From assembly GCF_002105155.1 (NCBI RefSeq), contig NW_019028994.1:1-64000 (forward strand): DNA of 64,000 bases. The letters are read 5' to 3'. The translations under genes and the position numbers were made by a program. Shown in pieces: positions 668 through 28,151 of this stretch (position 1 is its first letter; the number at the start of each line of letters is the position of its first letter). The DNA comes from Lobosporangium transversale (Eukaryota). The notes under the pieces are model-generated. The model was not told the origin of the DNA. It saw nothing but the letters and a program-made list of their open reading frames with translations, and made no database searches.

Positions 668-3133
668 ATGGCCACCACAAGGAGCTCAACACAAAAAAAC
701 ATGGCTGCAAATGATTCCACAGAGAGCCAAGCACAAAAAAAAATGACTGCAAATAAGCCTGAGGATGCCTCCACACTCAATAAACGAAAAAGAGTAAACC
801 AGCACCCACAACGAAAAAAGCGCGCCATCCCACTGCTACTGCTGAACTGCGTTGTCGAAGGAGAAGCAACGTCGTTCCCAGTAGAGATTTTCTGCGATAA
901 AACGGTCGGGATGCTCAAGCAAGCCATCAAGGTAGCAAAGAAGCCAGAACTTGATCATGTTGCTGCAGATAAGCTCATCCTCTACAAGGTCTCCATCCCT
1001 GACAAAGGCGAGGCCATCTTTGAGTCAGAAATCGAGTCAAAAGAGGCTCTCACAATCGCGTCAATGGAGCTTTGGGAGATATTTAATTCTGAACTTCCAA
1101 GGAAAACTATCCGTGTTTTTGTCAAGCCACCACAGCGAGGTATATCCTTGGCTCTTGATGGACTGATTGTTGATATTTTCAGCTGATGAAGCTTGGTTTG
1201 TATCTTAAACGGCCATGTGCATAATATCACCATTTGGTTTGTGTCTTGATAACTCAACGTTCTTTCTCATTATTCGCTTTTGATACTTAGCTCAGAAAAG
1301 AAAACAAGATGGAGATTCTGGTGAGTGCTTTTGGCCGAGAATCTGGTTATTGATCATTTTAGAGTGATGTGCAATAAATCAAAAATATTGACTTTGATCA
1401 CTCTATCTCCTTTATCAGAGTCACCCTCTAAAAAAGCTCGTCCAAGTATAAGTAGCAGAGGTGCTCTTAGGGATGCGATTACAGAAGCAGGGCTTGTAAC
1501 GAAAGGGATAGTGAATGGTAGGCCTGCCATCTCGCGTCTAAACTCGAAAGAGAGGGTCAAGCTGCTTTCGTACATGGGAGAGGAGTTATCAGAAGATACT
1601 ATTTACTGCAGCATTATTAGCGTGGCTTGCGAGCTCCGAAATTCTGGTGGTATCAAGGGTTCCAAAATATTGACTGCCCCTGAGGGTTGTATCTTCCCTG
1701 TTGCCGGAACAAGGCATCTTTATATCAGAGATGAATATAAAGAGCTTTATGACCATATTACATCCGAATTAAGTACCCCTCATGAAGTAACTCGTTTGAA
1801 CCGACTCTTTGTCACTGGAACGCCTGGAATTGGGAAGTCAGCCTTTTTGGTCTATTTTGCCATCCGCCTCCTTGCCGAACACGATGAGGAAAATCCACCG
1901 ATTATTATTTTCCAAGAGAAGCAGAGTACCGAATGTTATGCCTACGGAGGAACAACTTGCCAACGTTATGGGGAGAGAGTAGATTTCAAAAATTTCCTTG
2001 ACCAACGTGAAACGTGGTATTTAGTTGATAGTGGTAAAAATCCTCAACCAGGTGAAGCCAGGACGATATTTTCAGCATCGCCAAGAACTCTCTATGGGCA
2101 TTACGATGAACTCACCAAGGAAAATACACCAAATAGCTACTATCACATGTCACTCTGGAGTCTGGATGAGCTTAAGGAATGTAGAGCCAATGTAAAGTTT
2201 TTTCATGTAGTGAGTGAAGCATTTTTGGAGGAGCTTTTTTACGACTTGGGGGGCGTGCCAAGACAGGTTCTACAGTGTCCAGCCAATGTACTATCCAAAA
2301 ATCAAAAACATACTGAGCGTGCTAAAGAAGCTGCGTTTCTCCGCGTCAATGATGCCATTAGAACACTCGAGAAACCAGCAGATCTTCTAAGCCTCTTTGC
2401 ACGAGGAAAAGATGCGAGTGGATTTAGTTGTTTACTCCATAGAGTCCCCACTTCTGACCATCTCCACTTCTACCTGGTGTGGGCATCTCGTTGGGTCGAA
2501 TCACAGATTATGGACAAAATAAAGGATGACACGTGGGTCGATGTGTTGGCGAGACTTGTCATAGGCGGAGAGGATATAGATAAAGGCCCACTGTTTGAAA
2601 TCTATGCTCATCACTTATTTCGACGTGGTGATATTAGATTTCCCTTTAGGGATCTCCAGTCAGGCGAAACAGGATTTCTTGATTTTCCAGCAAATCCAGA
2701 AGAGGTGTTTATCCGGACTTCAGAGGAATTATCAAGGCTCACTCAAGCAGCTGGCAAGTTGTTTGTACCAGAACATTCTAAATTTCCGTGCATTGATTTT
2801 GCATTGGGACCCAACAAGCTATTTCAGGTCACAGTATCAGAGGAGCATGCGATCAAGCAAGCACCATTCAAGGAGATAATTGATTGTATTACTGGACCCT
2901 GCTTGAAAGGAGACCAATCAAAGTCGAAGGGAAGTGATGATACTATTTTCCTCTATTTTGTGGTGCCAGGAGACGTATATGACGATTTTCAAGTTCAGGA
3001 CTTTCTTACCACCAGAAATACGGTCGTCCAGAATCCATATAAATGCTTAAAACATGTAAGACAGCGTGTCATAAAAATCGACATCGAAGCTGCATATTCA
3101 GGAGGATCAGCCGGTACGAATCTGAAGAATTAA
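668..3133 (+). CDS. Crinkler (CRN)-like effector/toxin: N-terminal ubiquitin-like header, P-loop NTPase, C-terminal PD-(D/E)xK (REase) nuclease; exons 668-1139, 1291-1320, 1419-3133
   Basis: The header LLNCVVEGEATSFPVEI..TVGMLKQAIK..LILYKV..IRVFVKPP matches the CRN LFLAK/HVLVxxP header. Walker A is GTPGIGKS. The REase-like motif is FPCIDFALGPNKLFQVTVSEEH. GT-AG introns 1140-1290 and 1321-1418 keep the frame (both phase 1). Confidence 0.88.
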
Positions 3134-3399: not shown

Positions 3400-5870
3400 A
3401 CGGATAGAGATGAAGAATCCTGTGGAGAACCCAGTGAGAGTCTGATGATGAGACCCAAAATCATATTATTATCACCAGGACAGCTGGTATTGGAAATTAT
3501 CCTTTCTCGTATGCTTTGTCATCTGGATGCTTGCCATTTGCGGAAGACCTATCAATTATCATCATCCAGGGCGCCAAAACGTTTACCGGGAGCTAGGATG
3601 ATAGCTCCACTCTAAAGACATAAATGTCCCATGGTGCGCGTGCACGGGATGGCAACCTGTGGCCAATGAAATCATATTAGTTGTATGTTCGGCCAATTCA
3701 GTGTCAGTATGTGAAGGCGGCGCGTCTTGAATCTCTAGGCGTCCAGGGACATGGAATAAAAAAACATCAAGAATTTGGCCAAGGCTGCCACGCGCTTGAT
3801 CGGTAAAATGTGATACAACATTGGATTGTGTCGTCAGTATATTAATAGTTCTCGGTATATTAATGCTGCATGCTGCTGCTGAGGGCATCAATCTCGCCAG
3901 AATCATCCCCTCTCACATCAATTCATGCTAGACGGATGAAAGATTAGGAGGAAAAGGTCCTTGATGTCTGGGATATCCACGCTTGTTTATAATCTCACCA
4001 AAAGTTCTGTGTCTTGCGTTCATAGGCGGTTAATCGCAGTTTGGTTTTCGTATACCCCTTGAAGAACGCAAGCAAAAATGCCTTTATGTTTTATATTTGA
4101 TACTCATCAATTTACCCTTTTTACTTGTCCGAAGGTAGAATGACGCCTAGCCAATGGATGCTATTGCAAGTGTGTCCACAGGTCCTTGGAGAAGTCCATT
4201 GAGGAAACTCGGTTCCATCCAGGACAGATTTATTCCTAGCGCTCTTCACAAAAGTAGCAGAATTACTTGGTGGAGTTGGCTTTAATTGCCTTGACAAGCT
4301 CCTGCAAGATTGGTTCGACAATCTAATCAGGGTCCTTTCGGAGCGGCATCAAAGCAACTCTATGTTTTTGGTTGTTTTGAACGAGGTGCAGGATATGGGG
4401 AGGGGAGGCTAAATACCAGTTTATTAATAACGACGACACTATGCGACCAATATTATCAGCATTCTTTCATGGATTGGAGGGCTTATCAGAGGATTTACCA
4501 CGAATTTGCATAGTTCCTTGCGGGATAGGCTTTTGTATTTATGATCCTGCTTGGGTTAAGGGAACTGGCAAAGCTTCAAGGAATATCGAGAAGTTCTCGA
4601 TGACTCGAGGTTCAAGAGTGCAGTATCGTTTCCTAGATGGGATAATCAAGCAAAAGTCCGGACATACTTCAAGACACTTGTGCGATATTTGGAGAAATAA
4701 AGTTACTCAAGCTCTGCATCAAAGCGGAGAGGCCATTTTAATGATCAAGCAATCGAGATGCTATATGCTTGGTCCTGTGGTCGTCTCCGTCCAATGATCA
4801 CTATAATAGAGAACGTCATTGGACGTGCCGATGCAGGCCTTTGGAAGCAAGAAATCAAGGGCCTGGTGTGGTCGCTCACTGATCCGGGATATAAAGAATC
4901 TGGTAACCTATGCCATGAGTAATCTAGAATTCTGAAGCGTATTAACAAAGGGGATGCAGGAATTAAAACCAGTGTCGACATCAGGGAAACCTTCGGTCGA
5001 GCCGTAAAGAATGAATAGATTACTATATAGTAAAGACTTGATATTGGAGTACAATGAGCCTGTTCCGGTCGAGGTTTCGTTTGCTCGAATTGTCGTTAAT
5101 CAAAGGAAGAAGGAGTTTACAATTATCGTTGAGCCAATATCATTTATAGCAGCAATTAACTTGTTTGAAGTGGATGACTCTTGATTGGCTAAATTGGTTA
5201 ATAGTGTGTTGCTAGACACCCCTACGTCTCGCACAAAGGGCACACACATTTTGAGTATTTCAGTCCCGCTTTGTTTAATTTCAATCTTCCAGAATTATAA
5301 CAATGAACGAATTCTTAGATACTCACTGTAACAAAGACTCCATACATGAATCCAAGTTAATCTCGCTTTTTTTTTTTTGTTTTGTTTCCAAAAGAGAACC
5401 CATCTGGACCAGATATCGTCTTTGTATTAGAATCGGAGGGTAAATATTATCCTGGTTCCGTACAGTCAAAAATCGGCGATAAGGTCAAGAATTAAGGATG
5501 CCCACAATACAACTTGCCATAATTGCATCAAAGAACACCTCTCATCACCGTCTTCTCTCGGCTTTTGCTCGAATGGCATATCCTTGTTGCTGTTGTTTAG
5601 GCCTTACTTATCATGTTGCCTTATCACGAACAGGGTGATTATTCGCTAGCTAAAGTCAAAGAAGTTCCTGCCATCAAAGACAAACGAATAGAAACGACGT
5701 ACTCAATATTAGCTTGTTGAACTTCCTTGAAAGTGCAAGGGAGTCCCTCAAGAAGTCAGAATTGACTCGAGCTGTGGAGGATGAGGGAGAAGGAAGCAAG
5801 CCCAAAGAACCACAGGCAAGGAGGACATCAAAGAGAATTGCCGATAAAGCTCAAGCTATGGAGCATCGCC
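3400..5870 (+). pseudogene. Decayed CRN-like NTPase + PD-(D/E)xK nuclease gene (frameshifts and stops), interrupted at ~3650-4240
   Basis: Fragments read across frames: a possible broken CGKT Walker A (~3538-3549), Walker B-like FLVVLNEVQD (~4365-4395), RPILSAFFHGL, CGRLRPMITIIE..GNLCHE, IVEPISFIAAINLF and nuclease-like SGPDIVFVL..GSVQSK (~5400-5470). No intact ORF. Confidence 0.6.
3650..4240 (-). pseudogene. Possible Fanzor/TnpB-like fragment containing a degenerate RuvC-I motif, inserted in the CRN-like pseudogene
   Basis: Minus-strand pieces KLRLTAYE, VDIPDIKDLF, IDVRGDDSGEIDAL (3922-3881; compare RuvC-I hhGhDPGE) and AAACSINIPRTINIL occur in the expected order, but with several frameshifts. 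Confidence 0.35.
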
Positions 5871-6240
5871 CTAGCTCATGGGATATGAGTCCAACGTTTT
5901 CAAGAAGTTTGGGGCTCCTCTTCCAGTTTATGTTTGCGTAGTCTTCATCAGTCAGGTCTTCACCGGCTGCCTTTAAAACACGCCGTGTTAAGGAACCCTT
6001 GTGAAAGTTTCAATCCCTGGCTGAGATCTTCTTCATCTACGTCAGACTGCTGCTGTCTCTTCGTCTGGATTGTGCCATAGGCAAGTGGATTCAGAACAAG
6101 GCCATTGGTAAAATCGTCCCTTTGAGTTTGAACCGAGTTATACCTTTGTCTTGTGCCTGTAGGGGTACCTTGTCTCGATAGCCATGAAACATGCGATCTC
6201 CTTCAATGTCACAAAGAGAGCCTGTATCTAGACCTCTTTT
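5870..6240 (-). pseudogene. Fragment of a second Fanzor-like gene, paralogous to the 7486-8070 segment
   Basis: The minus strand reads GYRDKVPLQAQDKGITRFKLKGTI/FTNGLVLNPLAYGTIQTKR...INWKRSPKLLENVGL. This is colinear with GYKDVGLQSDDGPRRKLRTSFFTNGLTLTLLAYDTSKQKR...INWKQRSRLLENVEV of the + strand copy. At least two frameshifts. Confidence 0.75.
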
Positions 6241-7429
6241 GTTCCCTGTACACATTCAAACACTGCAGCCTTGGGAGGATTGTCGAGAGGATGTCAGTTA
6301 GAACGTGTTCAGACAGATACACATACCGAGGGGGGACGTAAGGAAGTCTGTTTTTTTTTTTTTTTTTTTTTTTTTTTTCACTCCATTGTTCTCTGGCAAG
6401 AAAAGCTCATCGAACAATAAAAAAATAGAGAGCTTTAATAGAGAGCAATCGACTGCAGAATATGCATGAGGATACTCTACACAAAGTTATATCTTTGTGC
6501 TCCTGTGGTGAATACATGGGTAGATTTGACTCGGTCTGTAGGAACTGATTTGAAACAAGTGGCTACATCCTTGTCAAAGGTAACAACAAAAGAAAAGAAG
6601 TCTTCTTTCTTCTTTTTATCAGAGAATGGCCTCATATGATGCTCTTTGCTCCAACAGCTCCAGCACTTTTGCGTTAAAGCAGAGATATTCGTTGGCTCTC
6701 GGGTTCCGGCATCATTGGTGGAGATAGGAGTGATGTAGTTGCATGCGCTTATTGCTTGTAGTAAGAACTATCTTAGTACCCTTCCTTACTAGACGACGCC
6801 CTGTTAATGGTGATATTGTGCAGCGCCTTGTGGAAGGAGGGAGAGCAGAAGCGAGATTAATACCGATGCGTTTGATCCTCTCCTAGGAGTATTTTTGATT
6901 ATGGAGTGATCGCCAAAATAAAGTTTGTTCATTTCTTCTGCTTGTGTTTTAGCAAAATGTGTTTATGCATGTGCTACTCATGCTCTCTTGCCAAGGACTT
7001 GAACAGGCATACCAACCCCTTCTTCCTTGCTCTCATAACCGCTCACATCCTTTCGATGCATTCTTTCGCCGTTTATGTCCACTACATCTGAACCACACAC
7101 AGTTCACCACTCACTCCAACAGAGATATTTGTATCACCTTGGGTATGATATGTTGCTGTGGTTCCCTCTGGTTTCAACAGGCCCAACAAACTCTATTAGC
7201 AGTGTTTATCAACCCAAATACATCAAGGGAACGCAAGAAGACGAGTAGGCAAATGATGCGACAAATCAAGTCTCGTCGAGCTGTACAGAAAAAGATCAAG
7301 TTAGTCAGGCTGTAGAACGAATCAACTCAGATTGCCTCAATCATACGACGAATATTATCATCACTATATCACATCAATCAATCAATAAACGATACAATGA
7401 GGCCCCCCAAGCGGACAATGGAGTCATGC

Positions 7430-8849
7430 GAAAGTCTTCGTGAGTATTATGGTCTAACCCAACAGTTCGAGAGGAAATAGTCCAATTGTTGGAACTAAAC
7501 ATGAGTACCAAGGGGGCTGCAGAGGACAAGATCCTTAACCACAAGGGGATATTGTTGCAGGAGCTGTTTTCCTTGAAAGGATACAAGGACGTTGGACTGC
7601 AATCTGATGATGGCCCTAGAAGGAAACTACGGACATCGTTCTTTACAAACGGCCTTACCCTAACACTTCTTGCCTATGACACATCGAAGCAAAAAAGAGG
7701 AAGAGGTTCGCAAGCTGCCCAACCTTCGGATACTCAAAGATCTCAAGCAGTCCAGGCTTCTTCAAGTGCTCAGCAGGGATCCTCGTCTTCAGGCCATGGT
7801 GCAGGCGATGGTGGTGATGATGGAGACGACGACGGAAATGAAGATGACGATATCTTGCTGGGTATCAGCGATATTGACTTGCTGGAAGTTGATGAACCAT
7901 TCTTAGATGGCAATGAGGGAGAAGAAGCAGCTGAAGAAGGTACATCGAGCACAAATCCACTGTCCCCGGCGAGTCCCAGTCCCCGGCGTGAGATCAACTG
8001 GAAGCAGAGATCCCGTCTCCTCGAGAATGTAGAAGTTAAATATGACACCCAGGCAGCATGGGACCAGTGACGACAATAAGGAGACTATATATAGGGCGCT
8101 TGTCGATTTCTATAATGACGGGTGGTTTGTTCGGAATAGCTGGGATAATAGAAAAGCACAGAACGGATGGGTTGATTATGTGATCAAGGCAATTCTGAAG
8201 CTTGCGGGCGGAAGCAATGGAAGAAGAAGAGATGCCAATACGAATGCGATGATCTGTATTGGACTAGGATCATTCAAGACAAACCGAGGACAAGTATCGA
8301 AGCATGGGATATTGATGAAGAAGCTTGTTGAAAAGGTAAAAAAAAAATCCTTTGATCAATGACATTTAATTTTTGAGTCTTTTTTTTAACGAGTATTAAA
8401 TCTGGCTCGAACAGGCAAAATCTCTAGACTACCCCATTGCAGGTTGTCATGAATACTACACATCTGCCAAGTGTCCACGGCCTCACTGCGACAGTATATT
8501 GGAGAATGTTCCTTTTCGATCCAAGTACTGTCGAAATTGTAAAGCATACTTTGATCGAGATGCTGTTGGTGCTGAGAACATCGCAAGGGTCTGTGAGTCG
8601 CAGACAAGAGAGCAAAAACGACCTGCAAAGTATATGCCGCCGGACGGAGGAACTCAAGGCCAAGCTTCTAGCGGTAGTGGCGACGGTGGAGGTAGTGGTG
8701 GCAGTGGTGGCAGTGGTGGTGGTAGTAGCAGACCCACAAAAAGGAAATTTTCAGATGAAGGAGGAGGAGGAGTAGGGGGATCAAGACCACCGAAAGGACC
8801 TTTGCTGGGTCCAGGAGGAGGGGGAGAGACAAGCCGGCAACAACAGTAG
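7430..8849 (+). pseudogene. Fanzor (eukaryotic TnpB/Cas12-like RNA-guided RuvC nuclease) homolog with a spliceosomal intron; disrupted near 8050-8075, RuvC-I apparently lost
   Basis: Splicing intron 8336-8414 (GT..AG, phase 0) gives KKLVEK|AKSLDYPIAGCHEYYTSAKCPRPHC..YCRNCKAYFDRDAVGAENIARV. This contains RuvC-II Glu (8451-8453), a CxxxxC..CxxC zinc finger and the RuvC-III DRDxxGAxNI motif (Asp 8559-8561). Upstream are FFTNGLTLTLLAYD and ICIGLGSF..SKHG. The tail is Gly-rich with an NLS-like PTKRKF. Stop/frameshift at 8068-8070. Confidence 0.85.
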
Positions 8850-9248
8850 GACACAATCTACTACAAACATGACTAGGTCCAGAAAGGCCTTCGTCTTAAA
8901 AAAATTGTAAGTATTGGCTTGATAGTACTTTTTTTTCTTGGTTAATTTATTTATTTATTTATTTATTTCTGTCTCTTTTTGAATAATGCAAAACAGCAAA
9001 TAATAAATGCATGATACATGAAAAATGTAATTATATAGATCAAACATAAATGAATGAAAGGATGAATGTGGGACACACATCCTTGGGTGTATATCGATCT
9101 ATATCAATATTTTTTTGTCAATCAATGTCACTATGTCTATACATATCACATCACGTCAATCAAGATGTATTATTTACGTTTTAGTGTAACAATGCTTTTT
9201 TTATTATTTTTATCTCGATCCCTCCATCTCAAATGGATATAAATACTG

Positions 9249-22660: not shown

Positions 22661-23394
22661 GTTGAAGAGAGAGGGAGGGACAAGTAGTACACGGAAGAAA
22701 AAAAGAGCTAATTGTTGTGAAATGAATCAAAAGAAAATCTATTTGCCACCATGTAGGAGACGCTGGCTGCAACTTGTAAGGAACATCAGCAGCCTGAGTG
22801 GCTTATGCACAATGCACGACATTTTTTTAAGTTGATACACGCTCCAAGGATGACAATCAGAAGCAATTGTCCCTTATTAAGGTTATTTTGTTTTCTGAGC
22901 ATTATTCCAAACCAGACAGTTTGATGATTTGACTTCAACGCAAGCAAAGCGCAAGGGATATCTGTTTACTTATTGAGTGATGCATCTAGAGAGGAGCCGC
23001 TGCACAGCACTACTTGGTTTTTTTTATTAAGCATATGTTTGCTATTGAGCTATCTACATCTTACCTGGCTACTATCTTAAGCTATATAAGGCCAGACTCT
23101 TAGCCACCTTGGAAAGTACTTTCCTTTGTCACTATCGAAAAGTCTCTCCAAGATGTTGTCCGGAGCACACCACGTGGAGGTGGTCTGGCATCGTGCTCCG
23201 ATAGGTCAGGCCCCATGGCCTTGCAAACGCCCGCACACACACCCATTAACCCATTTACCCATTTACCCGTTTACCCATTCCCGCCCAGCCGAAGGGGCTC
23301 CACCATCGCATAGCTCATTCAAGAACCAGCGTAGGTATATGCCCATTCGGACTCTTGGATATGCATTATTGCTATATTAAAGTGTTTTGTGTTA

Positions 23395-23830
23395 GTAGGT
23401 TTTTTTTGTTTTGTTTTGTTTTGTTTTTTTTTTTTTTTTGTTCTCTTTTAGTTTTTCATCGTCTTTTGAACTTTTTTTTATAGACACATATCTTTTGTGT
23501 ATTTTTTTATTGTCTTTTTTCTTGTTTTGTTTTCTTTACTTTTGTTTTTCTGAATATTTATGTATCTTTTTTCTTTTTTTCTTTTCTTTTCTTTTTTTTT
23601 TTGTTCTTTGTTCTTTATTCTTTGTTCTTTGTTTTTTTTTTTTGATTTTTGATTTTTGAATTTTTTTTGCTTTTTTGTTTTTTGTTTCTTTTTTTGTTTC
23701 TTTTTTTGTTTCTTTGTTTTCTTTTTTTTTTTTTGTTCTTTTTTGTTCTTTTTTTGTTCTTTTTTTTTGTTTTGTTTTCTTTTTTTTTTTTTTTTTGTGT
23801 GTTTCTTTTGGTAGGTGTTTGTTTTTGTCT
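23395..23830. repeat. Low-complexity T-rich tract (mirror A-rich tract ~26394-26829)
   Basis: About 430 bp of T runs punctuated by g/c (e.g. ttttttgttc units). Confidence 0.9.
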
Positions 23831-24008
23831 TGATGGGTCTCGTTTGACTTTTCTTTAGTTTCATACTTCAGTTGGTGGCGTCAGCCTTTGGGTACCAGTG
23901 CCTCCTAGAGCACACCGTGAAGAGATGGCTCGGTCATCATGCCCTGGGGCTGCTTGAGGCTGTCAGGTTGTTCTGGGAGGGCTTTCAAGTGAAGCAGTCG
24001 GGTCGCTT

Positions 24009-24230
24009 TAGCGAGGCCGTTTGAGCGAGGCCGTTTGAGCGAGGCCGTTTGAGCGAGGCCGTTTGAGCGAGGCCGTTTGAGCGAGGCCGTTTGAGCGAGG
24101 CCGTTTGAGTGAGGCCGTTCGAGTGGAGTGCGACTATGCGAGTGCGACTGTTTGAGTACGGCTGTTTGAGCGAGGCCGTTCAAGTGCGGCTGTTTGAGTG
24201 GGGTCGTTTGAGTGGGGCTGTTCGAATGTG
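24009..24230. repeat. 14-bp minisatellite (gagcgaggccgttt)n in the left arm; mirror copy at ~25994-26215
   Basis: About 7 near-perfect copies at 24009-24106, followed by progressively degenerate copies. Confidence 0.92.
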
Positions 24231-25016
24231 GCAGCATGGCCGTGACTTAGACTCGAGCTATGAAGCTCAAGCTGGCTTAGATGGATCTGCACCGTTTAGA
24301 GTCTAATCGTGAAATGAAAAGAGAGAGAGACAGACAGAAGAACAAAAATCAGAACAAGAACAGTGCAGCATAGACTGAGGAAGCTAAGAAACTCAGTAGG
24401 GGTGTGTGTTTAGAGAGTGTTGCTTACCTTTCATCTTGGTCAGGAGGCCGATGGTCGGGGAGACCGAGGAGAAAAGAAAAAAAAAAAGAAGAGAGTCAAA
24501 ATTGGTCCTTTTATTTTCTTTTTCTTTTTTTTTAACAATAAAAAAAAAAGCTTGACATGTGCTGAGTGACTTCTGAAAGCGCAATATCAAAGTAATGGAT
24601 ATAATAAATATATACATGTAGCTTGCTTGTTGTACGCTCAAGAGTGACCAATAAGAATATAGAAATACAAAGAAAAAAAAGCGGCATTGCGGCTATCTAC
24701 GCGTTTTTTACGTCATTCATTTTATTTCACATGAAGAATGGGAAAGCTCTCACGGCTGGAGGTGGGAAAACAACTGTCTTCAAGCTCTGCAAGCTCATGC
24801 AAGCAGCATTCGAACCCCAACTGCTCTTGAACTATTTACTCCTGTTAGTAAAGCTGGTTTTCTTTATTCCCTTCGCCTATTCTTTCTCTTCACTCCTGAC
24901 AAGAGGTGGGATAGACTATTGTGGGAACTCTACCGCAGCAGGCTGCCTTTTTTCGAGAACGTGATAGAAAATAACACATGACAATCCTCAGAATACCTCT
25001 GCGCCTTTTTTTTTTT

Positions 25017-25268: not shown

Positions 25269-28151
25269 GAGCTGAATACAGCCTGCTGAAGCACAGTTCC
25301 CACAATAGTCTATCCCACCTCTTGTCAGGAGTGAAGAGAAAGAATAGGCGAAGGGAATAAAGAAAACCAGCTTTACTAACAGGAGTAAATAGTTCAAGAG
25401 CAGTTGGGGTTCGAATGCTGCTTGCATGAGCTTGCAGAGCTTGAAGACAGTTGTTTTCCCACCTCCAGCCGTGAGAGCTTTCCCATTCTTCATGTGAAAT
25501 AAAATGAATGACGTAAAAAACGCGTAGATAGCCGCAATGCCGCTTTTTTTTCTTTGTATTTCTATATTCTTATTGGTCACTCTTGAGCGTACAACAAGCA
25601 AGCTACATGTATATATTTATTATATCCATTACTTTGATATTGCGCTTTCAGAAGTCACTCAGCACATGTCAAGCTTTTTTTTTTATTGTTAAAAAAAAAG
25701 AAAAAGAAAATAAAAGGACCAATTTTGACTCTCTTCTTTTTTTTTTTCTTTTCTCCTCGGTCTCCCCGACCATCGGCCTCCTGACCAAGATGAAAGGTAA
25801 GCAACACTCTCTAAACACACACCCCTACTGAGTTTCTTAGCTTCCTCAGTCTATGCTGCACTGTTCTTGTTCTGATTTTTGTTCTTCTGTCTGTCTCTCT
25901 CTCTTTTCATTTCACGATTAGACTCTAAACGGTGCAGATCCATCTAAGCCAGCTTGAGCTTCATAGCTCGAGTCTAAGTCACGGCCATGCTGCCACATTC
26001 GAACAGCCCCACTCAAACGACCCCACTCAAACAGCCGCACTTGAACGGCCTCGCTCAAACAGCCGTACTCAAACAGTCGCACTCGCATAGTCGCACTCCA
26101 CTCGAACGGCCTCACTCAAACGGCCTCGCTCAAACGGCCTCGCTCAAACGGCCTCGCTCAAACGGCCTCGCTCAAACGGCCTCGCTCAAACGGCCTCGCT
26201 CAAACGGCCTCGCTAAAGCGACCCGACTGCTTCACTTGAAAGCCCTCCCAGAACAACCTGACAGCCTCAAGCAGCCCCAGGGCATGATGACCGAGCCATC
26301 TCTTCACGGTGTGCTCTAGGAGGCACTGGTACCCAAAGGCTGACGCCACCAACTGAAGTATGAAACTAAAGAAAAGTCAAACGAGACCCATCAAGACAAA
26401 AACAAACACCTACCAAAAGAAACACACAAAAAAAAAAAAAAAAAGAAAACAAAACAAAAAAAAAGAACAAAAAAAGAACAAAAAAGAACAAAAAAAAAAA
26501 AAGAAAACAAAGAAACAAAAAAAGAAACAAAAAAAGAAACAAAAAACAAAAAAGCAAAAAAAATTCAAAAATCAAAAATCAAAAAAAAAAAACAAAGAAC
26601 AAAGAATAAAGAACAAAGAACAAAAAAAAAAAGAAAAGAAAAGAAAAAAAGAAAAAAGATACATAAATATTCAGAAAAACAAAAGTAAAGAAAACAAAAC
26701 AAGAAAAAAGACAATAAAAAAATACACAAAAGATATGTGTCTATAAAAAAAAGTTCAAAAGACGATGAAAAACTAAAAGAGAACAAAAAAAAAAAAAAAA
26801 CAAAACAAAACAAAACAAAAAAAACCTACTAACACAAAACACTTTAATATAGCAATAATGCATATCCAAGAGTCCGAATGGGCATATACCTACGCTGGTT
26901 CTTGAATGAGCTATGCGATGGTGGAGCCCCTTCGGCTGGGCGGGAATGGGTAAACGGGTAAATGGGTAAATGGGTTAATGGGTGTGTGTGCGGGCGTTTG
27001 CAAGGCCATGGGGCCTGACCTATCGGAGCACGATGCCAGACCACCTCCACGTGGTGTGCTCCGGACAACATCTTGGAGAGACTTTTCGATAGTGACAAAG
27101 GAAAGTACTTTCCAAGGTGGCTAAGAGTCTGGCCTTATATAGCTTAAGATAGTAGCCAGGTAAGATGTAGATAGCTCAATAGCAAACATATGCTTAATAA
27201 AAAAAACCAAGTAGTGCTGTGCAGCGGCTCCTCTCTAGATGCATCACTCAATAAGTAAACAGATATCCCTTGCGCTTTGCTCGTGTCGATCGTGCTTAAG
27301 GGAAGATGCCATTCTTGGGAAAAAAGAGAGCTACACAGGCAAGGGTGTCGAATTATTATTCGGATCTCAGTGACCTTGAATGTCCTTGTCCTTATTCTCT
27401 CCAAGGACTGGGTTATCTTCGCCTATCTATTCTCCTCTCCAACAAAACACTTTCCAGAAAGACATTAATAGCGTATACGCCCTTTATGTTTTGATCAAGG
27501 CGCTGTCGACCTAATGTTTCCAGGAACACTCGCAATTGCTCACTGAATACACCTGAACCTTTAATTTCATTTCATTATTCCATTTTTGAAGCGATGGCTG
27601 CTACGTGTTCCACGCGTCTCACACCTTCATCTGTCATATACGCTTCGTCTATCAAGCACCCTCGCCCTGTTTATAGCTTTCTGAACCATCCGACACCATT
27701 TCTCAGTCGGGATCTACATCAGGCGTGCAACATATGGGCCATGCAACACACCATCCGAGTTATTGCATACCGAGGCTTGGGAGTGCGTCTCAAGGGCACT
27801 TCCATTTAAAAGATTAGAATATTGTGCGAAGGCTATGGTGGGGCTTTATAAACGGCTTCCGCCCGGTAACAATAGTAAAACAACTTCTTAGTCTCCTTGA
27901 CTATCAGTCACCAAACATTTCGCGAATTACAAAACCAATGAGCGGCGGAAGATATGAGGCTGTATGACAAGATTTACAGCTCACCCCTATCGATGAGTAC
28001 ACTGCACCATATAGACCCATATAGCGTATACGATGAATTAATTTACCACTCACGTGGGGCAGACGATATTGTTGGTTTTAGTTTTAGTCACGTGTAGAGG
28101 GTTCGCCACCAACTATTTAACGAGCAACAGCTCAGGAAAATCTGGCTCCTT

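Follow-up and report, generated by a model that had tools for sequence, protein, structure and literature searches.

A dead Fanzor1 copy from Lobosporangium transversale: relatives with a FEN1-like nuclease domain and a predicted, probably spliced omegaRNA

Fanzors are defined, in the available portions of Yoon 2023 and Jiang 2023, by a glutamate located six residues before the zinc finger, with glycine or proline at the canonical site; DPG is given as the RuvC-I motif of Fanzor1 (Yoon 2023), and introns and NLSs in Fanzors have already been reported (Jiang 2023). In the accessible text of Xu 2024, the omegaRNA of SpuFz1 and PpFz1 consists of stem-loop 1 (SL1), a linker, stem-loop 2 (SL2), and the guide, and neither a FEN1-like domain nor a spliced scaffold is described for these proteins. 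Splicing and a guide RNA come together in one transposon transcript in IStrons, which combine a group I intron with TnpB; according to the accessible part of a review (PMC13565253), self-splicing and omegaRNA formation are mutually exclusive in these elements. Fanzors of the fungus Lobosporangium transversale are on record as well. The accessible rows of Saito 2023 (PMC10432273) label XP_021884711.1 (supplementary file 3, row 1414; 834 aa) and ORZ22893.1 from this species as FZ1, and the Yoon 2023 supplement contains 96 mentions of Mortierella, with the displayed rows belonging to the table of Fanzor hits.

We analyzed 64,000 nucleotides of L. transversale DNA (contig NW_019028994.1, positions 1 to 64,000; hereafter, the window). 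The plus-strand segment 7445-8849 is almost certainly a dead member of this known multicopy Fanzor1 family (Table 1). An earlier note, made from the sequence alone, had placed an intron-containing Fanzor at 7430-8849. A family element is indeed located there, but similarity begins at 7445 and the element extends beyond 8849, to at least 8916. The novelty that the note implied did not hold because the lineage itself is already catalogued: XP_021884711.1 belongs to the same family, and its displayed part covers the window ORF sequence, although its 834-aa model begins after the FEN1-like domain described below, whereas the window copy is truncated and internally deleted.

Table 1. Features of the Fanzor loci in the window
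Feature	Coordinates	Strand	Evidence
Second Fanzor remnant, frameshifted, of another L. transversale subfamily (P0008-P0016 type)	5854..6408	-	
5'-truncated coding fragment of a Fanzor1, comprising the end of REC, the WED (TNG motif), and an acidic insertion	7445..8060	+	tblastn 97% to P0001/P0002
Internal deletion junction 8060/8061: 128 residues including RuvC-I lost; frameshift, TGA at 8068-8070	8060..8070	+	Comparison with P0001
Coding exon past the deletion: REC2 helices, ICIGLG strand, Gly at the canonical RuvC-II position	8061..8335	+	
79-nt phase-0 GT-AG intron, family-conserved position	8336..8414	+	Spliced junction in X6
Terminal coding exon, containing the relocated catalytic Glu, the C4 zinc ribbon, the RuvC-III Asp, and a Gly-rich tail (KRKF); ends at stop TAG 8847-8849	8415..8849	+	
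Predicted omegaRNA stem-loop 1	8871..8895	+	-8.6 kcal/mol, z -2.4
Conserved A-rich linker, TT at end; final exonic bases ahead of the non-coding intron	8896..8906	+	
GTAAGT donor and intron stub within the predicted omegaRNA scaffold	8907..8916	+	X6 leaves after 8906; X3/X4 DNA contigs reach 8916

With the coding intron excised, KLVEK runs in frame into AKSLDY, and the spliced frame contains the entire string listed in the earlier note, HEYYTSAKCP-x3-C...CRNC-x4-DRDAVGAENIA, followed by the Gly-rich tail and KRKF. The glutamate that had been labeled RuvC-II is the relocated Fanzor glutamate (E-YYTSAK-C, six residues ahead of the first Cys), the canonical site being occupied by Gly (ICIGLG). 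The C4 zinc ribbon is followed by the RuvC-III Asp, and the DPG motif, deleted in the window copy, is present in the paralogs P0001 and P0018, so that RuvC-I-bearing paralogs exist, as the earlier note had considered possible. The last exon matched the Pfam family PF07282 (Cas12f1-like_TNB) with an E-value of 5e-7 (30.1 bits; cut-off, 26.3) and NCBIfam TnpB models weakly. An unrelated zinc-finger family was ruled out, the match to the IBR domain having an E-value of 0.07-0.3.

When 8415-8636 was used as the query, 22 proteins were retrieved, of which 16 are named Lobosporangium transversale. The closest proteins, all from this species, were 95-97% identical, and some contained IDPG; P0001 was 93-97% identical to the window copy over three blocks. 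A 16-sequence profile compared with the PDB yielded one match at E<=1, to SpuFz1 (E 6e-4), and phmmer of P0001 against the PDB returned Gly-linker matches only. In a Foldseek search with the AlphaFold model of P0001 (mean pLDDT 74), SpuFz1 ranked first (E 3e-8), followed by PpFz1, with Fanzor2 at rank 16 and TnpB at rank 17. Thus, by profile and predicted fold, the family is nearer to Fanzor1 than to TnpB or Fanzor2, in agreement with the Fanzor identity originally proposed. SpuFz1 and PpFz1 (PDB 8GKH, 9CEU, 9CF1) share DPG, the relocated Glu, and the C4 ribbon with the family in addition to being its top fold matches, whereas sequence identity is only about 15%. The family profile matched 934 representatives at E<=0.001; no relatives were found in viral contigs (50 pattern matches checked) or prokaryote genomes (2 pattern matches checked). 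Relatives of the window family reach 1000-1500 aa compared with up to about 800 aa for Fanzor1 (Yoon 2023).

The window copy is dead, as had been suspected. Its first frame tracks P0001 to residue 186-187 (base ~8060) and returns in another frame at residue 316; P0001 residues 188-315, which contain IDPG, correspond to the missing segment, and RuvC-I-type sequence branches off at 8060 as loose contig ends in the DNA runs X3 and X4. Assembly error was ruled out as the cause of the deletion, given that P0002 carries the identical junction; the nearby residues of P0002 differ and its upstream part is intact, so the RuvC-I-deleted form exists at more than one locus. About 550-650 upstream codons, including the FEN1-like domain, are gone as well. 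DNA contigs span the junction at 7445, and the 5' truncation is therefore real; the alignment of a contig from a third run, X6, to the window copy also begins only at 7445.

Three features were absent from the earlier note: the minus-strand Fanzor remnant, the FEN1-like domain that full-length relatives carry, and the omegaRNA region together with the splice donor inside it. The first of these, the remnant, concerns a separate locus. This remnant is divergent from the 7445-8849 copy, and its similarity likewise stops within a few codons before RuvC-I. Multi-copy sequence, as judged by contig depth, variants, and loose ends, occupies 5400-5850, 6650-6856, and 6972-7345, so that repeats crowd both remnants. 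Elsewhere in the window, a plus-strand ORF of 602 aa (1325-3133) contains the P-loop GTPGIGKS and has weak Pfam matches; we take it to resemble Crinkler-type NTPase-nuclease proteins, and related fragments may be present at about 4380-5180. Furthermore, 22935-24945 and 25279-27289 form a perfect 2011-nt inverted repeat with a 333-nt spacer, each arm containing a 14-nt tandem array and T/A-rich tracts, which is either a real palindrome or an assembly fold-back.

The coding intron is conserved and spliced in the family. An X6 contig (a run assigned to RNA by guess only) reads from the coding donor straight into the next exon, and the X6 contig that holds the intron has a depth of 47 compared with 170 and 241 for its neighbors. 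Because X6 contigs carry paralog alleles and the depth at the window copy's own 5' junction is 3.6, splicing of this intron, described in the earlier note as a GT-AG intron, is demonstrated at the level of the family but not of the window copy. Of the 13 metagenome loci, 12 have an AG acceptor at the corresponding codon (in L001, the site was not located), and donors placed in 10 of them define introns of 74-121 nt.

Full-length relatives are very likely fusions of a FEN1-like nuclease with a Fanzor. All 14 relatives of at least 950 aa among the best 150 representatives matched the N-terminal FEN1/XPG-type profile, 10 of which were seeds of that profile, the other four matching at E<=3e-17. 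Five acidic columns examined (E-D/E-D-D-D) are kept in 12/14 of these proteins, and the D-E-D triad in 11/14. A 36-sequence profile matched FEN1 (E 7e-14), EXO1, XPG, and SpuFz1 (2e-9) in the PDB, and the motifs of the family line up with FDG, EAE, DMD, and SDY. Human FEN1 was the best match of the P0087 model (867 aa; E 2e-7). The Atlas clusters nearest to residues 1-275 of P0026 are XPG proteins of giant viruses (Nucleocytoviricota), and the Atlas model of P0026 aligned with giant-virus XPG clusters with a TM-score of 0.77; the Atlas feature scores for this domain, 0.76-0.80, are leads only. Pfam is nearly blind to the domain (2/20 long proteins, both below the cut-off). The domain thus resembles the FEN1, EXO1, and XPG 5' nucleases in fold and acidic active-site motifs, but differs from them in being fused to a Fanzor, in showing only 10-14% identity, and in being missing from the window copy.

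In the metagenome locus L004, the FEN1-like and Fanzor parts lie on one strand and could be linked by four in-frame GT-AG introns of 79-121 nt. The fusion likely occurs in the window copy's own subfamily as well, where the link is indirect: in P0173, the FEN1-like domain immediately precedes the sequence with which P0018 begins, and two partial models from L. transversale, P0025 and P0034, each include the FEN1-like and the Fanzor part, with G at two acidic sites in P0034. None of the retrieved proteins combines a complete FEN1 domain with a complete Fanzor in a single L. transversale protein. The window copy has lost the domain: the FEN1 profile had no match at E<=1 in the six frames of the window.

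Compared with the Fanzor1 scaffold SL1-linker-SL2-guide, SL1 and the linker are present in the window and SL2 is predicted in relatives, so that the 3' layout of the family fits that of SpuFz1 and PpFz1 as presented in the accessible text of Xu 2024. A hairpin was predicted at the SL1 position in 8/8 related loci folded; RNAalifold on the sequence alignment produced a weak consensus (-0.24 kcal/mol), and Rfam gave one weak low-complexity match, far under the gathering score. An X6 contig of depth 241 matches the window through 8906 and then continues with 34 other bases opening with ATGG; this junction was observed in one contig of one run, itself assigned to RNA by guess and containing paralog alleles. 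The 30 displayed bases past the junction fold as an 8-bp hairpin (z -3.2), and we infer that the four unseen bases past those 30 could pair with ATGG. A source other than splicing, either a genomic paralog that lacks the intron or DNA present in the run, is highly improbable for this junction. Intron-less forms do exist in relatives, as L011 shows, and the junction was seen among the loose ends listed, the data containing 117 further ones; nevertheless, the X3 and X4 DNA contigs cross the donor and reach 8916 at depths of 187 and 191, equal to that of the element body (184-199), and X6 leaves several intergenic bins uncovered and has the coding intron spliced too.

The donor is a recurrent feature of the metagenome loci. 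GTAAG(T/C) occurs 26-71 nt past the stop in 8/11 loci with a located stop (background, 0.0004 per base), a count that, for homologous loci, reflects conservation and not independent trials; L001, L002, and L013 have no such donor past the stop. The donor follows the linker directly in 6/11 loci and three bases further on in L012, and L011 contains linker-ATGG, the joined form with the first intron absent, and a donor 14 nt later. The linker-donor/ATGG motif is found once in the window and once each in 7/13 loci. We consider it quite likely that this family uses the donor at 8907 to splice out an intron. In L005, L008, and L010, a 95-106-nt intron with a branch point is followed by an ATGG micro-exon, a second intron, and a terminal piece ending in CTATA, where the similarity of L005 and L008 (90% identical) ceases. 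After in-silico splicing, the terminal piece forms a 5-7-bp stem with the stretch that runs from the final base of the linker through the micro-exon; compensatory changes on both sides of the stem set L005 apart from L010 and also from the two-intron model of L004. The 7-bp spliced models ranked first in L005 (of 15), L008 (of 8), and L010 (of 7); stems of 5 bp also turn up by chance when alternative splice models are compared, and model choice was not blinded.

An alternative interpretation is that the locus is an ordinary dead Fanzor1 with an inconsequential 3'-UTR intron and an unspliced omegaRNA in which GTAAGT lies within stem 2. Helices of 8 bp are possible at the start of the intron in both the window and L004, in L004 the unspliced 8-bp helix beats the spliced 5-bp stem, and the region past SL1 is only weakly constrained according to the available part of Xu 2024. 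This appears improbable, considering that such intron hairpins were no better than shuffles in 7/7 sequences (z -0.9 to +1.7), that L011, without the intron, contains the joined sequence, and that the spliced stems end where the L005 and L008 flanks diverge. We therefore hold that the omegaRNA scaffold of the family is probably split by spliceosomal introns, such that the guide-adjacent stem would form only once spliced; the balance tips slightly in favor of splicing being needed for a working omegaRNA. Unlike in IStrons as covered by the accessible part of PMC13565253, the window family has spliceosomal introns, the removal of which would assemble the scaffold. The downstream omegaRNA exon (SL2) was absent from the window in exact, 3-mismatch, and micro-exon searches, and the scaffold of the window copy is thus incomplete too. 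Accordingly, this copy could supply no active nuclease and no complete scaffold.

Several observations concern the intron sequences themselves. In the second non-coding intron, the final ~47 nt (L005 600-650, L008 1845-1892, L010 798-842) are 79% alike between L010 and L005/L008, possibly representing sub-terminal DNA bound by a transposase, and the first non-coding intron of these loci has no BLAST match beyond the donor. At 8902, another X6 loose end continues with a branch-point and polypyrimidine-like sequence absent from the window, perhaps the 3' end of the family intron in another copy.

Altogether, it is reasonably likely that the window contains a dead copy of a Fanzor1 family in which long members carry an N-terminal FEN1-like nuclease and the predicted omegaRNA is assembled by spliceosomal splicing. 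An intact copy would be transcribed through its 3' end, and splicing would take out one or two 3' introns, uniting both arms of a terminal stem that would end at the element boundary (CTATA in L005, L008, and L010), with the flanking sequence used as the guide. By analogy with known OMEGA systems, as reviewed in the accessible part of PMC13565253, the Fanzor would then cut the empty allele with this flank-derived guide, resection or trimming of the cut ends would fall to the FEN1/EXO1-like domain, and the break would be repaired by copying the element back (homing). Completion of the terminal stem by splicing and processing of the cut ends by the FEN1-like domain are inferred steps. The right boundary of the element is known from L005 and L008 only, and neither a left end nor a TSD, TAM, or transposase was established from the sequences compared.

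The FEN1-like domain could instead serve mobilization, through flap processing within a transposase-free copying mechanism, or be a passenger, rather than resect breaks. No transposase was noticed beside any metagenome locus (the contigs are short), P0037 retains part of the FEN1-like domain while lacking RuvC-I, and the RuvC-I deletion shared by P0002 indicates that deleted copies multiplied. Such a role seems somewhat unlikely to us, given that both active sites are retained together in most long relatives and that FEN1/EXO1 enzymes are not known to carry out strand transfer. The stronger proposal built on break resection, namely a two-nuclease RNA-guided Fanzor1 lineage combining a FEN1-like resector with a Fanzor, its omegaRNA licensed by the host spliceosome, is about evenly balanced; scaffold introns and micro-exons would drop conserved sub-terminal DNA from the RNA and put guide maturation under splicing control.

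We found no published description of either the FEN1-like fusion or the intron-split guide-RNA region of this family. Neither a FEN1-type fusion nor a spliced scaffold appears in the available main texts of Saito 2023, Jiang 2023, Yoon 2023, Bao and Jurka 2013, Xu 2024, and Matelska 2017. The searchable supplements of Saito 2023, Jiang 2023 (the tables of which are perhaps incomplete), and Yoon 2023 do not mention XPG or PIN, and those of Saito 2023 do not mention flap. A full-text literature search, the scope of which excludes subscription papers and Repbase, had no match for Fanzor with XPG, and the accessible Fanzor/TnpB literature on FEN1, PIN, flap endonucleases, and guide-RNA splicing addresses neither feature, IStrons being the nearest case.

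Considered alone, the window copy is one more pseudogene in a family already catalogued, and the features of the family carry more weight. If true, assembly of the scaffold by the spliceosome would represent a new adaptation of OMEGA systems to eukaryotes; omegaRNA predictions and heterologous tests based on genomic 3' ends would fail for such families, the guides of which would be hidden from searches that fold genomic DNA. A natural fusion of a Fanzor with a 5' flap-exonuclease would illustrate a way in which eukaryotic elements may direct repair toward homing and would constitute a natural cut-and-resect editor.
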